Shown: one piece after another, positions 8,140-52,622 of the stretch | Position numbering within the stretch: position 1 is the first letter of the stretch | Layout of the letters: every line of letters starts with the position of its first letter | NCBI GenBank assembly: GCA_964016885.1 | Contig: OZ024751.1 | Location: 28,458,001-28,522,000, forward strand | Source of the DNA: Eledone cirrhosa | Taxonomy: Eukaryota | Reading direction: 5' to 3' | Length of the DNA stretch: 64,000 nucleotides | Translations under genes and position numbers: made by a program | The notes under the pieces: generated by a model | What the model was told of the DNA's origin: nothing | Database searches by the model: none | Seen by the model: only the letters and a program-made list of their open reading frames with translations

Positions 8140-8448
8140 ACCAAAGATTAATATGGTTCATTGATTACTCAATGAATATAGTTTTACAATAGATTAAAAG
8201 CACTCTACAAGAAAGTTTTCTGGAGTTATTAAAATTATTCAAAATATTAATAAATGAAGACATTCATTCACATAATCAAAATATATGTTTTATTATATAT
8301 ATTTCGAAGGTACTGTGCTGTTTTTTCAGTACGTCCTCGTCAGATTCATGTATTTTATCTGACGAGAACATACTGAAAAAACAGCACAGTACCTTCGAAA
8401 TATATATAATAAAACATATTTTGATCATTTATTAATATTTTGAATAAT
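8140..8448 (-). mobile_element. Penelope-like pseudo-LTR fragment with inverted partial copy, flanked by TA tracts
   Basis: Inverted arms 8234-8345 and 8357-8448 both carry a hammerhead core. The minus-strand copy continues into a unique tail down to about 8140. Confidence 0.65.
8353..8414 (+). ncRNA. Type I hammerhead ribozyme in a fold-back Penelope-like fragment
   Basis: UUUUAU-CUGACGA-GAA..UACUG...CAGUA..UUC-GAAA-UAUAUA-UA-AUAAAA. An inverted second copy of the core at 8288-8345 lacks most of stem I. Confidence 0.72.
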
Positions 8449-8520
8449 ATATATATATATATATATATATATATATATATATATATATATATATATATAT
8501 ATATATATATATATATATAT

Positions 8521-8564
8521 GAAAATGTATGACCCCGACGGCAGAGCACCACAACTCCTTCGTT
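8521..8564 (+). mobile_element. Minimal family A relic (inverted piece fused to the 3' terminus)
   Basis: GAAAATGTATGACCCCGACGGCAGAGC joined to ACCACAACTCCTTCGTTA between (TA)n runs. Confidence 0.6.
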
Positions 8565-9380
8565 ATATATATATATATATATATATATATATATGATCGA
8601 GTGCTAAATCTCTGGACTGTGTATCAGTCTGTTTGAGAATTAAGAAACATCCTCTCCACAATGACCATCATTACATTTGATAATAACGACGATGATGACG
8701 ATGACGATTATGATGATACCAAAAAGACATTTTTATTATTGTTGTTATTGTTGTTGTTATTATTAACAGTAGTAGTAGTAGTTTTGGTGGTGGTGATGGT
8801 AACTGTGGTGGTGTTTGTAGTAGTAGTAGTATTAGTAGTAGTAGTAGTAGTAGTAGTAGTAGTAGTAGTAGTAGTAGCATGAGGAGGAGGGGGAGGAAAG
8901 AAACCGTGTCTTCAAAGCTCCTGATGTGACAGAATAATTTATCCTCTCATGAGGTGTTTTCCTAGTATTACCCTAAAATACTTTCCTTTCCTATTTATTA
9001 CAATTATTGTTATTTCTAGGTTTACCGATTTTCCCCTTTTTGTTACGTCCCTTTCTATTTTTCTTGATATAAACCCTATTTTGTGTAGTGCTGTTCGTCG
9101 TCCCCCAATATTTTACATCAATGAGGGTTAATAAAAGAGATTATTATTATTGTTATTATTATCATTATTGTTGTTGCTGTTGTTGTTATTTTATTATTAT
9201 TGTTATTATTATCATTATTGTTGTTGCTGTTGTTGTTATTTTATTATTATTGTTATTATTATTATTTTTTTATTGTTTTTTTTTCCTTTTCCTTCAGTAT
9301 TGTCTCTGATATAGGCCGAGTGTCTTCCTGACACCTAGGGCAAATATATTCACTGTATACATTGGTAAGCCAGTTAACAC

Positions 9381-9540
9381 ACCGCCGAGGTTAACTTTGC
9401 CTTTCATCCTTACGGGGTCGATAAAATAAAGTACCAGTAATACACTGGGTAATTGCTGGCCTTTTGCCTAAAGTAGAAACAATTATTATTATTATTAGTC
9501 ACCTACATGTCGGACCTGGTGGCCAATAAAGGAAATCATC
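9381..9540 (+). mobile_element. Main SINE, 5'-truncated
   Basis: CCGCCGAGGTTAACTTTGCCTTTCATCCTTACGGGGTCGATAAAATAAAGTACCAGT. Confidence 0.8.
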
Positions 9541-12500
9541 ATTATTATTATTATTATTATTATTATTATTATTATTTCTAACATAAGCAGCACAGAAATG
9601 TTTCGAAAATGTTTCACCCGCCGAAGAAATGGAATCCTGGATGATTTAAGCGATACTTAATTTAATAGATGGAAGGGAATGTGATAATGATGATGGCGAT
9701 AATGATGATGATACTACTACTACTACTACTACTACTACTACTACTACTACTACTACTACTACTACTACTACTACTACTTATAATGATAATGATAATAATA
9801 ACAACAAAAACAACAATGGAGATGATGTTCATGATGATGCTGATGATTGTGATGATTCGAAATAAGAATTAAAGAGAAAACCGATTATATTCATATTATA
9901 TACATGTATAAATGTATATACATATATATATACATTCACACACACACATATATATATATATATATATATATATATATATATGTGTGTGTGTGTATAAGCA
10001 TACATATGTATATTAATGCAAATATATGTATATATATATATATGTATATATATATATATATATATATACATGTGTCTATATATATGTATATATATACATT
10101 CATTAAATTATACACATATATATAAATACTATATTAAATTATACACACAAACACATATATATATATATATACACACACGTATATATATATGTATGTATGT
10201 ATACCTGTGTGTCTATATATATGTATATATATACATTCATTAAATAATACATATATATAAATGTATATATATATATATATATATGTTTATATACAAACAA
10301 AACAAACGCAAAAAGAAACAACGAGACCAGTGTATAAAAGTGAGCGTATGTTATATTTATAAAGGTGTGGAATAAAAAAAAAAAGTTTCGAAAGCCAATC
10401 TAGTAAAAAAAAAAAAAAAAATTAAATTAAAAATCAAGTGAACCATTTGAGCAAGATAATAATAAACATTTTGGGAGCGAGACTTATCCACCATTTTGTA
10501 TATATATTTTTTCAACAAATTACATAAGAAAATTGATTATAGCAACCAAAGGGTGGCTTCAATACAGCCAGGTATGATACCATCCACGGAGATATACAAA
10601 TATAATAAAGAGAACTAAGATGACTGTGTTTTTGTTTTTGTGTTTTTTCTTGTTTTTTTATTTTTACATATTTCGCCTAATGGCGTCTTTAGCTTTAAAA
10701 AAAAATTTTTTGCGTAATTTTGCATTTTCATTTCGTTTATTTTTTTTTTCATTCGCAATCGCTATCCTCTACAACAACACTACTTCTCCTCCTTGTATGT
10801 ATGTGTCTGAGTGTATGTGTGTCTATATGTCTGCGAGTGCATGCATGTGAGTGTACAGTCTTTTACAAAAAAAAATTCCTTTCGGGGAGAGAAGCCCAAA
10901 AAACAGATGCTTGAAAGGGGCATATATGCGTGTATGTATGTATGTGTTCGTATACATATGTATGCATGTGTATTTTTATGTGAATCTGCATGTGTGTGTG
11001 TGTAGAAATGTGCATGCGCATGTGTGTATGGTTGAGTACAAAAAATTGCATACTTCAATACAGAGAGCTACTTTTGTAAAGTGCATATAAGTCTTAAATT
11101 TTATTTTTATTTTTATTTTATTTTATTTTAATTTTTATTTTTAATTTATTGATTTTATATTTTTTTCATGAAGTATATTTTTTAAAAATTTTTTATCAGT
11201 AACTTTTTCTTTTTTTTTCTCGAGCATTTAAAAAAAATTTACTCCTTCTTCTTCAACTTGGCACTGTTGAGAAAACAGTGTTCTCTCGAATGCACACTGA
11301 TTATATGGAGGCACAAAATGGACAAAAAAAATGTAGGGAAAGATGGTGGGGATGAGATAATATTAATTTTGGTCAGTAATTTGGAGTTCCCTGAGACTCG
11401 GAATAAACCGTTGACACTAGATTTTTTTACTAACTATAAAGAGGGGTTTTGCTATATACAAAATAAATGAATTGCCATGCCCCTTCCTCCAATTGCTTTT
11501 TCATTTTACCTTAGGCCCCACTAGAATGACGATGCGGGATTGCGAGATGCATAGAAATGGAAAATAGATCAAAATCAAAAAAAAATGTTGACAAATAATA
11601 ATAATAATAATAATAATAATAATAATAATAATAATAATAATAATAATAATAATAATTTTGCGTTCTTAGAAAGTATCTAATTATCTTAATTAAAATATAT
11701 TGAAAATGAAATAGATGGAAAGGGGAGGGTATCAAAAGTAGTAAATTATATATATATATATATATATATATATATACAGACTGATAATTAAAAAGGTGGA
11801 AAGAAAAGACTTAGCCAACAAAATACCTCACAGCTATGTTCCATCATGCATCATGTTGATGCTAAATTTTAAGCGAGATAATATATATATATATTTATAT
11901 ATATATATATATATATATATTAATAATTATATGTGTAAATTAATTAATTAGAAGAATGCGGGCGAAAAAACCTAGCTGTTACCATATAAACAGTTACATG
12001 AACATAAAATTACATGTATATATATAAATGCATATATATACATACATACATATATATATATATATATATATATATATATATATATATATATATATATATA
12101 TATATATATATATATATATATATATATATACATATATACATATATATATATATATATATATATATATATATATATATATATATATATATATATATATATA
12201 TATATATATATATATATATATATATATATACGTATATATACACATATATATATATATTTGTATGTATGTATATATATATATGTGTGTGTGTATGTGAGTA
12301 TATATATATGTGTGTGTGTGTTATATACATATATGCATATGGGCGTTTGTATGTGTGTGTATGTGCATACAATTTTGTATGTTCAAGCGTATGTGTTCGA
12401 GACGGAAATGACTTCAGTACGGAAGTAGGAAAAATACATAAACAGGGCTTGCTACTGCGGATATATATAGAGAGAGAGAATTGAGGAGAGTAAATGACAT

Positions 12501-51235: not shown

Positions 51236-51412
51236 AGAGCGGTGGATTAGCAGAATCGATAGAGCGTCGGACAACATACTTTGCGGTGTATAGTTACAAC
51301 CCTTTATGTTCTGAGTTCAAATCCCACCGAGGTTAGCTTTGCCTTTCATCCTTAAGGAGTCGATAAAATAAAGTACCAGTAACATACTGGTGCCAAAAGT
51401 AGAAATAATTAT
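51236..51412 (+). mobile_element. Main SINE, near full head and core
   Basis: GAGCGGTGGATTAGCAGAATCG...GAGTTCAAATCCCACCGAGGTTAGCTTTGCCTTTCATCC...AAGTACCAGT. Confidence 0.85.
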
Positions 51413-51544
51413 TACTTCTCTTTTCCTACTATATCAATCGTTAAACTAATATGTCTTCGTTGTACTGTGCTCTTCACATTTTCCATATATATATATATAT
51501 ATACAGAGAGAGAGATTATATATATATATATATATATATATATA

Positions 51545-51740
51545 TAGGAACCAGTAAGACCCCGACAGCTGAGCTCAAGCCGTTTCGACGGCTAATTCTG
51601 GACTCAGAATTAGCCGTCGAAACGGCTTGAGCTCAGCTGTCGGGGTCTTACTGGTTCCTATTACCCACTCTACTACCTCAAGTATTGAGTACTTTGGTGC
51701 GTTATGGTCCACCTGGTTCCTTACCACATTTCCTTCGTTA
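51545..51740 (+). mobile_element. Family A copy with a perfect 56-bp-arm palindrome
   Basis: Arms 51545-51600 and 51605-51660, loop GACT, then the tail to CCTTCGTTA(TA)n. Confidence 0.8.
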
Positions 51741-52309
51741 TATATATATATATATATACAGAGAGAGAGAGAGATTATATATATATATATATATATATAT
51801 ATATATATATATATATATATATATACAGAGAGAGAGAGAGATTATATATATATATATCTCTATATATATACAGAGAGAGATTATATATATCTATATATAC
51901 AGAGAGAGAGAGACATTATATATATATATATATATATATATCTCTCTCTCTCTCTATATATATATATATATATATATATATATATCTCTCTCTCTCTATA
52001 TATATATATATATATATATATATATATATATATATATATATATATATTTAATATAGAAATGGCTTACTGTGGTTACCCCCGATTGAACCCAGGATAAACT
52101 TATATATATATATATATATATATATATATATATATATATATATATATATGTGTGTGTGTGTGTGTGTGTGTGTGTGTGTGTGTGTGTGTGTGTGTGTGTG
52201 TGTGTGAGTGCGTGTGTGTGTGTGCGTAATATATATATTATTTTTCATTTTGTAAAAAAACCTCACTTTCTAATATATATATATATATATATATATATAT
52301 ATATATATA

Positions 52310-52622
52310 TACGATATTAATAAATGGAAACTATATTTATAAAACCATATTTATTTCATTATACATATTTCAGGGATACCAAATTAAATTATGGTATGCC
52401 TTCATCAGACAAAATACAATATATAACAGTTTTACAAATAAGCTTTGACGTATCCTATTAAAATGCACCCATTGTTTTTGGAAGCTATCCGGATATGGTT
52501 TTATAAATATAGTTTCCATTTATTAATATCGTATATCTACTCCAAATACTTGTCGAGTGCTTTATATCAGTTATAAAAATATTTACTTGTTGTATCCCAA
52601 CAATTTTAAATAGAACTTTTGC
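52310..52622. mobile_element. Penelope-like pseudo-LTR fragment with inverted partial copy, inserted in (TA)n
   Basis: About 40-bp inverted arms 52310-52350 and 52493-52533 enclose a hammerhead. The plus copy continues into a tail. TA runs on both sides. Confidence 0.68.
52352..52416 (-). ncRNA. Type I hammerhead ribozyme, sense to the onecut intron
   Basis: UAUUUUGU-CUGAUGA-AGGCAUACCA..UGGUAUCCCU-GAAA-UAUGUA-UA-AUGAAAUA. Stem I is 8 bp (2 GU), stem II pairs 9 of 10, AUA triplet. Confidence 0.8.

Follow-up and report, generated by a model that had tools for sequence, protein, structure and literature searches.

The Hydra clade of C-terminal EN+ Penelope-like elements, which includes a member from Octopus, was described by Craig et al. 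2021 (PMC8557442). The 30-40 bp tail of these elements is ascribed there to endonuclease resolution, and neither "hairpin" nor "stem-loop" occurs in the main text of that paper. The repeats of the window, i.e., of the whole 64-kb stretch of DNA analysed here, resemble the published elements in their (TA)n targets, hammerhead motifs, in part degenerate, in the pLTR, truncated insertions in tandem or inverted arrangement and a one-sided tail, whereas they differ by their ACTC/GAGT, by tails that measure about 75-160 nt and by the lack of an ORF. Internal RT initiation has been reported for PAc, the Poseidon element of Anolis carolinensis (Frangieh et al. 2024, PMC11167929). There, RT initiates at a pair of internal sites, one on either side of the tail, with extension of both strands and a predicted dimer; the published account defines no conserved recognition motif, and neither start site showed a strand preference. 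Adjacent internal starts with the tail between them, an AT-rich target and an upstream hammerhead are shared with the model proposed below. The PAc starts, however, both fall within a single AC-rich stem-loop of the ORF, while the Hydra-clade sites are each located just 5' of their own 5' UTR hairpin, and the hairpin motif dealt with here is absent from the PAc start-site RNA (Fig. S1, PMC11167929). Family D of the window is reminiscent of non-LTR retrozymes (Cervera and de la Pena 2020, PMC7229834; bioRxiv 10.64898/2026.07.22.740005) in that its tandem unit lacks an ORF and contains a type I hammerhead motif, but the unit has 575 nt, whereas 170-400 nt have been reported, and each locus has a single complete hammerhead; the accessible text of either source mentions no hairpin signal.

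A bulged hairpin in the window repeats

The earlier note had described an ACTC...GAGTRC motif in four families of the window, at 51667-51692, 52539-52560, minus 8226-8200 and minus 47370-47347, and all of these coordinates and strands are correct. The families, said to be otherwise unalignable, indeed form separate repeat clusters (masked self-BLAST, E<=1e-4). Enrichment over shuffled sequence was found: ACTC-N8-24-GAGTRC has nine matches in the 64-kb window, compared with 1.17 +/- 1.15 expected, and none of 100 shuffles reaches nine. Because six of the nine are copies of family A, the pattern stands for four independent families. The ACTC of a fifth family, E, was confirmed at 58733 on the minus strand; it pairs with GAGT at 58664-58661 across a long loop, and family E is therefore a full instance. 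The reading as a small hairpin holds for the ACTC/GAGT stem, while an inner stem and a 2-nt bulge had been missed. Literature searches found no earlier description of the motif. The hairpins are the following.

51667-51692, plus strand: family A hairpin, ACTC / TACT..AGTA / TT bulge / GAGT / AC
52799-52824, plus strand: family A hairpin, second copy
58469-58494, plus strand: family A hairpin, third copy (reference for reads)
40633-40658, minus strand: family A hairpin, fourth copy
55507-55532, minus strand: family A hairpin, fifth copy
57051-57140, no strand assigned: short family A fold-back with its junction within the hairpin loop
52539-52560, plus strand: family B hairpin, ACTC / CAA..TTG / TC bulge / GAGT / GC
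8200-8226, minus strand: family C hairpin, ACTC / CAG..TTG (one G-U) / TA bulge / GAGT / GC
47347-47370, minus strand: family D hairpin, ACTC / GGAA..TTCC / TA bulge / GAGT / AC
58658-58733, minus strand: family E hairpin with long loop, ACTC / CAAGA..TCTTG / TT bulge / GAGT / CAC
3280-3331, plus strand: candidate sixth hairpin (TGT..ACA, TC bulge, GAGTGC), single copy

The pattern match at 57097-57126, in the family A fold-back, is chimeric, only its 3' half being hairpin. Among the eight arm-plus-extension families examined in the window, the hairpin is clear in five; two old ones (18938-19078 and 43140-43246) retain degraded traces only, and it is absent from the one at 61799-62089. The candidate sixth hairpin is located 90 nt before (TA)n with an undefined boundary, and folding favours another structure. 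Half hairpins of the GAGC type, with tails of 37-39 nt, occur in the window at 4220 and 55337.

The window consensus is an ACUC/GAGU stem, a 2-nt UH bulge and an inner stem of 3-5 bp, followed by RC. The inner stem has five different sequences and is paired in all five families, only given the 2-nt bulge on the 3' side. Upon folding, the outer stem of family B has pairing probabilities of 0.91-0.93 within its tail; the hairpins of families C, D and E reach about 0.7, 0.96-0.98 and 0.83-0.96, respectively, and the whole tail of family A does not form the hairpin. Among reads of family A, 3 of the 19 positions in the stem, bulge U and RC are variable, versus 30 of the 62 other positions (p=0.015).

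Two known structures of similar appearance were rejected. Stem III of a hammerhead needs a preceding GAA, a 1-nt loop and then the cleavage base; the window ACTC follows CCC, TCT, ATA, TAT or ATT and is situated downstream of the hammerhead. ACTC-N-GAGT also forms stem III in several Hydra ribozymes. A Pol III A box would have its D-loop where the inner stem is paired. The hairpin stem and flank do resemble those of a tRNA D-arm.

Occurrence and covariation in Hydra-clade elements

Hydra-clade contigs were retrieved by means of a peptide motif of the RT, without use of the hairpin; one of five genome-contig matches (L084) was a bacterial chance match and was excluded. The comparison loci (L080-L083, L089, L101, L123-L139) have a canonical hammerhead, a C-terminal EN and (TA)n; their best matches show 43-53% identity, and RWK, DKT and CxCX5C motifs are read in the translations of L080 and L083. 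GCTC..GAGC-RC matches 30 times in these contigs versus once in reversed sequence. All fetched Hydra elements have GCTC/GAGC and none the ACTC/GAGT of the window, the outer pair thus being either G-C or A-U, and the broader consensus reads RCUC/GAGY stem, UH bulge, short inner stem, then RC. Out of 33 hammerhead contexts, 13 have the intact hairpin 29-61 nt after the cut and 13 run into a microsatellite before it; in the remainder, one hairpin is one base off, one is cut inside, and five contexts are of other kinds. The 5' UTR is retained at five of seven ORF starts, and all five have a second hairpin, which follows the first at 42-44 nt (4/4 Hydra-clade elements) and precedes the ATG by 21-28 nt, a distance that is fixed in 4/4. 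In three families, TA junctions are found 3, 5 and 6 nt upstream of hairpin 1; 14 junction rows place them 34-44 nt beyond it, and in one family the junction is 4 nt before hairpin 2. The second insertion end maps just 5' of hairpin 2. By eye, a clean GCTC/GAGC hairpin is seen in three of six published Hydra consensi (PMC8557442). Hydra-1_Obim, from Octopus, offers only an imperfect candidate with a long loop, Hydra-1_Crog has two imperfect hairpins, and Hydra-1_Amil has none and seems to end at site 1, the end just before hairpin 1. No solved structure was found for any Hydra-clade protein.

The inner stem was tested on 25 distinct Hydra-clade contig matches plus the five window families. Paired inner-stem cells amount to 75 of 90, compared with a shuffle mean of 42 and a maximum of 59, and none of 100000 shuffles reaches 75; the bulge begins with T in 28 of these 30 sequences, which the contig search pattern did not require. 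Covariation and the blind retrieval in Hydra-clade elements thus bear out the proposal of a conserved hairpin at the boundary. A search for the ACTC pattern near (TA)n in metagenomes gave 79 loci, all of them background and without an upstream hammerhead, which served solely as a null, and among these matches to sequence pattern only 2 of 84 background rows have at least three Watson-Crick inner pairs. Neither by hairpin pattern nor by protein was there a match in viral contigs, and a MAFFT alignment of the hairpins does not follow the structure. With a loose pattern, the largest of four whole genomes is at background (720 versus 700 in the control) and the others are mildly above it, so the hairpin sequence alone is not diagnostic; in this search the loose pattern also matches what we take to be tRNA D-arms.

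It is extremely improbable that the motif is a chance feature of AT-rich repeats or was composed post hoc. The window holds only four or five independent families, and the hairpin descriptor was refined after sight of them; nevertheless, a Markov null gives about 1e-5 matches per position (0.9 per 2 x 42,820 nt), and the blind replication in unrelated contigs refutes chance, unless these contigs are not independent of the window.

Insertion ends and a proposed model of internal priming

The Penelope-like context claimed earlier holds: the targets are (TA)n, the arms are truncated and either inverted or in tandem, the extension is confined to one side, and hammerhead motifs lie upstream. Families A-E are all inserted into (TA)n, their pLTR copies being truncated, arranged in tandem or inverted, and tailed on one side only.

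51547-51738, plus strand: family A fold-back in (TA)n; left end is site 1, right end is the tail end (site 2)
58383-58540, plus strand: family A fold-back insertion in (TA)n
40587-40729, minus strand: family A fold-back insertion in (TA)n
52312-52622, plus strand: family B fold-back insertion with tail
8140-8448, minus strand: family C fold-back insertion with tail
46805-47571, minus strand: family D direct partial tandem, 575-nt unit, ending at site 1
44840-45299, plus strand: family D second copy, ending at site 1
58576-59439, minus strand: family E inverted insertion with long tail

From the switch of the shorter copy to (TA)n, ACTC is 5, 2, 7, 4 and 1 nt away in families A, B, C, D and E, respectively, distances that are uncertain by a few nt owing to T/A microhomology. 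The earlier placement of ACTC at the boundary stands for all five families, at 1-7 nt, while its description as an inversion boundary does not apply to family D, a direct partial tandem in which 47380-47571 repeats 46805-46996. For family A, 3620 reads change to (TA)n at site 1. Copies ending at site 1 are wholly without the motif. The window tails extend 48-85 nt after GAGT, as opposed to 34-44 nt in the fetched Hydra elements. No continuation beyond the family A tail end is present among the 16 matches listed, no second hairpin is seen for any family in the window copies, and a canonical one is absent in family D, where downstream sequence is visible.

In the window families, the hairpin lies downstream of hammerhead motifs.

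47064-47132, minus strand: type I hammerhead motif, first family D copy, with 4-bp stem II and 8-bp stem III
44995-45062, plus strand: type I hammerhead motif, second family D copy
58776-58887, minus strand: family E hammerhead motif with long stem II region
8290-8343, minus strand: family C hammerhead core, degenerate, by core pattern, 3' limit approximate
52368-52408, minus strand: family B hammerhead core in the inverted arm, read from sequence
51619-51641, plus strand: family A hammerhead, 3' half only (GAAAC, stem III, GTC), read from sequence

The cores of families B and C fail a stricter stem filter, and the 5' half of the family A hammerhead is missing from all window copies. Rfam returned nothing at gathering score for the A/B/C/D regions, with no hammerhead match even for the clear D motif; in a wider search including family E, the best 150 of 503 matches all lie below gathering score. 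It is the position of the hairpin, rather than that of the hammerhead, which the insertion ends follow: in family D, site 1 is 4 nt from the hairpin and 259 nt downstream of the predicted hammerhead cut at 47064.

In truncated Penelope-like insertions, likely of the Hydra clade, the fixed ends are followed closely on the 3' side by a covarying bulged hairpin, and it is likely that this hairpin acts as the RNA docking site for the RT start. We infer a role in RT binding or priming. The RT-endonuclease would nick the (TA)n target and bind a hairpin, and the nicked DNA end would pair with the U/A-rich bases just 5' of the hairpin. Two hairpins, and probably a dimer of the protein, would allow one target strand to be primed at site 1 and the other at site 2; of the two arms that are joined as a result, the inverted one would end at site 1 and the other at site 2. 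Since each hairpin would position one of the two RT start sites, the optional "tail" would equal the hairpin spacing. This duplicated RNA signal, in which hairpins 42-44 nt apart each load one subunit of an RT-endonuclease dimer and both (TA)n strands are primed internally, is put forward tentatively, its chances being somewhat below even. The hepadnavirus epsilon and the template-flanking elements of telomerase are likewise small RNA structures that fix where an RT starts or stops; the proposed mechanism differs from these in that priming would be by nicked target DNA and the start would lie outside the stem.

An unlikely reading is that of a stop or template boundary, at which RT on an antisense transcript, or RT meeting a bound protein, halts a few nt short of the hairpin, the ends being cDNA stops. 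An antisense template has been argued for Adineta Penelope elements (PMC3846280), and the strand is not settled by G-U asymmetry (4 G-U versus 2 A-C). Junctions in or at the hairpin, as for a roadblock, are seen at 57097-57126, in L126 and in the two GAGC half hairpins; yet the fixed ends show TA microhomology and adjoin (TA)n like primed ends, while other ends vary, and PAc in vitro initiates at equivalent sites on ORF-sense RNA (PMC11167929). A quite unlikely reading is that the GIY-YIG endonuclease recognises the motif as DNA, in the form of a short inverted repeat or an extruded hairpin, and trims integration intermediates there. It would accord with the reported need of the D. virilis Penelope endonuclease for tail DNA in recognition (PMC11167929) and with the ascription of the tail to endonuclease resolution (PMC8557442). 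Half-site spacings from 9 to 65 nt, the covarying inner stem and the fixed bulge are, however, unsuited to a double-stranded site, and there remain the site-1 copies altogether lacking the motif. Hammerhead-cut RNA would have no cap, and the hairpins might serve translation or stability of this RNA, the ends coinciding with them only through the shortness of the 5' UTR. The fixed distance of hairpin 2 to the ATG in 4/4 is in favour of such a role, which is nonetheless decidedly unlikely, given that the ORF-less 575-nt unit of family D keeps hairpin 1 and still ends 4 nt before it, and that the ends follow the hairpin to within a few nt.

Clade assignment and significance

The window families A-E, known here from ORF-less copies, likely belong to the Hydra clade. 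No ORF is joined to any of them, the copies being truncated ends; no RT or GIY-YIG Pfam match was obtained among 145 frames of the window, and two weak Hydra-like ORF remnants (7598-7675 and 62655-62735; E 0.006 and 0.04) are unlinked to the families. The type I hammerhead is full in D and E, a degenerate core in B and C, and a 3' half in A. The Naiad clade, with N-terminal EN and no canonical hammerhead, was rejected on account of the full motifs of D and E. Six 9-mers from the 3' side of the hairpin occur in the Craig supplement at nine places, four Hydra and five Naiad/Chlamys, in a search that misses matches split by line ends; by eye, the hairpin is present in all four of the former and in none of the latter. 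The hairpin looks specific to the Hydra clade. An origin of the ACTC/GAGT hairpin in another Penelope-like clade (e.g., Neptune), with mere resemblance to the Hydra hairpin, is very unlikely. The lack of a linked ORF, the differing outer pair, the longer tails and the want of a clean match in Hydra-1_Obim would fit such an origin, but the order of parts, the stem, the UH bulge, the RC-T flank and the distance to site 1 are the same as in Hydra, the change from A-U to G-C is itself compensatory, and the GAGC-type half hairpins with their 37-39 nt tails and the Hydra-like ORF remnants lie in the same window.

The way in which an internal start is chosen by Penelope-like RTs, which are the nearest relatives of telomerase RT, has been open since the elements were described, and the optional tail and inverted arms of their copies are likewise a long-standing puzzle; the 2024 work on PAc established two internal starts, with no recognition signal named in its published account (PMC11167929). 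The hairpin is common to cnidarian, echinoderm and mollusc-associated elements and obeys exact positional rules, which opens its role to test by a small set of RNA mutants. As a marker it allows fold-back and retrozyme repeats that lack an ORF to be assigned cheaply to the Hydra clade; it would also name the RT mobilising ORF-less retrozyme-like units, and it is a candidate for a compact RT-recruitment tag. If true, the duplicated signal would explain why there is a tail, why arms are inverted head to head and how ORF-less ribozyme units are mobilised, and a portable signal of 20-25 nt would direct internal, homology-independent RT initiation by a sister group of telomerase.

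The bulged hairpin of families A to E

The motif is a bulged hairpin, made up of an outer stem (ACTC/GAGT), a 2-nt bulge on the 3' side and an inner stem, and followed by RC. It is carried by five truncated Penelope-like insertion families of the window, A to E. The four instances of ACTC...GAGTRC reported in an earlier note were all found in place, and family E, which had been taken for a half match only, possesses the full hairpin with a long loop. The inner stem comprises 3-5 bp, with pairing kept in all five families despite five different sequences; setting the bulge to 0, 1, 3 or 4 nt leaves almost no Watson-Crick inner pairs.

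Bulge and inner stem of the hairpin in the five families
Family A: 2-nt 3' bulge TT; inner stem TACT/AGTA
Family B: 2-nt 3' bulge TC; inner stem CAA/TTG
Family C: 2-nt 3' bulge TA; inner stem CAG/TTG
Family D: 2-nt 3' bulge TA; inner stem GGAA/TTCC
Family E: 2-nt 3' bulge TT; inner stem CAAGA/TCTTG

By folding, the outer stem pairs with a probability of 0.7-0.98 in families B, C, D and E; it is not supported when the entire family A tail is folded. At gathering score, Rfam recognizes neither the hammerhead motifs of the window nor the hairpin (for E, among the matches listed). The hairpin structure is nearly certain.

In the window, ACTC-N8-24-GAGTRC is matched nine times versus 1.17 matches expected, with six of the nine belonging to one high-copy family (A) and one of these six being chimeric. 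Once masked, families A to E show no mutual alignment, and every one is inserted in (TA)n. In families A, B, C and E, site 1 is the fixed point where the short inverted arm gives way to (TA)n; the longer arm continues past it into a tail, whose end in (TA)n is site 2, as defined from window copies. Family D has a 575-nt unit in direct, partial tandem, so that the setting at an inversion boundary, as originally proposed, does not suit it. ACTC starts 5 (A), 2 (B), 7 (C), 4 (D) and 1 nt (E) past the divergence point. The hairpin is present in five of eight inspected families having an arm plus extension; two old ones contain traces only and one is without it.

Hammerhead motifs are located upstream of the hairpin on the same strand: D and E have a complete one, B and C a degenerate one and A just the 3' half. 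The predicted cut precedes ACTC by 25 nt in A and 42 nt in E, and lies 259 nt upstream of site 1 in D; site 1 thus tracks the hairpin and not the ribozyme. The core strands of the family E hammerhead (58776-58887, minus strand) are about 75 nt apart, far above the gap given in the published table of Hydra hammerheads.

Reads mapped to families A and B reach a depth in the thousands-fold, and 3620 reads of run X19 turn into (TA)n at site 1 of family A. In the A tail (58460-58540), variants above 2% affect 3 of 19 stem, bulge-U and RC positions versus 30 of 62 others (Fisher p=0.015, among the variants listed), each of the three being supported mainly by one run. The commonest A-tail variants affect the loop and the second bulge base, which is also where, among the variants listed, those within the family B hairpin fall.

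Hairpins in Hydra-clade elements

In the elements examined from the Hydra clade of Penelope-like elements, the hairpin has a GCTC/GAGC outer stem. Inspection by eye of the accessible portion of the PMC8557442 supplement reveals GCTC-stem-TH-GAGC-AC downstream of the hammerhead in Hydra-2_Amil and Hydra-2_Ajap, two hairpins directly before ATG in Hydra-1_Ajap, two imperfect hairpins in Hydra-1_Crog, one imperfect candidate with a long loop in Hydra-1_Obim and no hairpin in Hydra-1_Amil, whose consensus appears to stop at site 1. Searched with 9-mers, that portion yielded four Hydra places, all with hairpins (4/4), and five Naiad or Chlamys places, none with a hairpin (0/5). A metagenome scan by sequence pattern returned 79 background loci; three Watson-Crick inner pairs occurred in only 2 of 84 rows.

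Comparison contigs were picked blind to the hairpin, through a degenerate RT-peptide pattern that gave five from prokaryote assemblies. One of these was bacterial and was left out; the other four, presumably host DNA, code for Hydra-type proteins. Further contigs were drawn from the same four assemblies, bringing the total to 119 kb. These assemblies (G001-G004; contigs L080-L083 and L123-L139) contain many eukaryotic retroelement contigs, with 39 matches to Hydra-type protein in G002, and their Hydra-type elements are often nested within the same (TA)n tracts.

GCTC..GAGC-RC is found 30 times (25 distinct) in the 119 kb versus once in reversed sequence. When the 25 distinct matches are joined with the five window families, 75 of 90 inner-stem cells are paired (shuffle mean 42, maximum 59). 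Since no row was removed, and some come from related families and about four are background, the shuffle count should not be taken as a probability. The first bulge base is T in 28 of these 30 rows.

The hairpin is intact in 13 of 33 hammerhead contexts, 29-61 nt past the cut; another 13 reach a microsatellite before the hairpin, one is one base off and one is cut within the hairpin. The other five are two Hydra copies without hairpin or TA run, an inversion junction and two copies of a family without adjoining Hydra ORF. At L127:9790-9990, a hammerhead family without adjoining Hydra ORF has no hairpin within 150 nt before its TA junction.

The 5' UTR is kept at five of seven ORF starts, and a hairpin is situated shortly upstream of the start in 5/5. 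The distance between hairpins 1 and 2 is 43, 44, 42 and 43 nt; that from hairpin 2 to ATG is 21-28 nt. TA junctions are found 3, 5 and 6 nt upstream of hairpin 1, and L123 has one 4 nt upstream of hairpin 2; in L126, the tail end runs about 8 nt into hairpin 2. Tail-bearing copies stop 34-44 nt past hairpin 1 (14 rows), as expected for a site 2 just upstream of hairpin 2.

Related fold-backs and other features of the window

4180-4227, 47601-47718, 55310-55375, 57365-57409 (minus strand): GAGC-type 3' hairpin halves, then 37-39 nt tails and (TA)n
18938-19078, 43140-43246: old fold-backs with degraded hairpin traces where expected, the former with a minimal hammerhead 3' half
61799-62089 and 63897-63986: fold-back whose tail measures about 50 nt; neither hairpin motif nor hammerhead seen
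26782-27153 (minus strand): homeodomain exon (Pfam PF00046, E 2e-12)
60009-60908 (plus strand): LINE-like protein, C-terminal fragment bearing C2H2 zinc fingers
16120-16311, 45583-45774 (plus strand): two copies of a fragment coding IVIGALG
51236-51390, 54565-54746, 54907-55039, 58152-58277, 61459-61778, 63425-63784: SINE-like family, abundant and dispersed, with as many as 10 overlapping matches
48300-49900: (CA)n-based array, unit length about 22 nt

The GAGC-type half copies resemble the Hydra elements used for comparison; all of them have lost the 5' half, their junctions falling at the loop or close to it. The fold-back at 61799-62089 and 63897-63986 perhaps represents another Penelope-like clade. 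The homeodomain exon resembles the last exon of a Onecut-type gene, and the LINE-like fragment appears RTE-like; IVIGALG is typical of the C-terminus of restriction-like-endonuclease LINEs. A loose hairpin pattern has further matches among G001 and G004 sequences, some of which look like tRNA D-arms; chance or mimicry may account for what they share in stem and flank.

A possible role in the RT start

Structure, covariation, duplication, spacing and end positions form the established part of the mechanism. Beyond these, a protein would dock on the hairpin, and U/A-rich bases just 5' of it would pair with nicked (TA)n. Two hairpins would provide two starts on opposite target strands, giving rise to site-1/site-2 fold-backs and the optional tail. 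This scheme is modelled on PAc, the Poseidon element of Anolis carolinensis, for which the accessible text of PMC11167929 describes two internal starts either side of the tail, extension of both strands and a predicted dimer. Speaking against the scheme, no second hairpin is seen for any window family, and none that is canonical in D; the window copies of D have site-1 ends only, which, in a small sample, fits a one-hairpin unit. That the hairpin sets the RT start is rated somewhat better than even.

Within the window families, no ORF tying the ACTC form to the Hydra clade was found. Elsewhere in the window, there are two weak Hydra-clade ORF remnants (endonuclease end; DKT motif), at 7598-7675 and 62655-62735 on the plus strand (E 0.006 and 0.04). 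The window families likely belong to the Hydra clade.

Tail, inversions, hammerheads, (TA)n targeting and internal initiation are already published. A description of the hairpin was not found in the open-access texts searched, as far as accessible, including PMC11167929, PMC8557442, PMC3846280, PMC7229834, PMC4209133, PMC13282606 and bioRxiv 10.64898/2026.07.22.740005. The hairpin, apparently undescribed so far, is real and conserved, a cis-acting RNA motif in elements of a known type.
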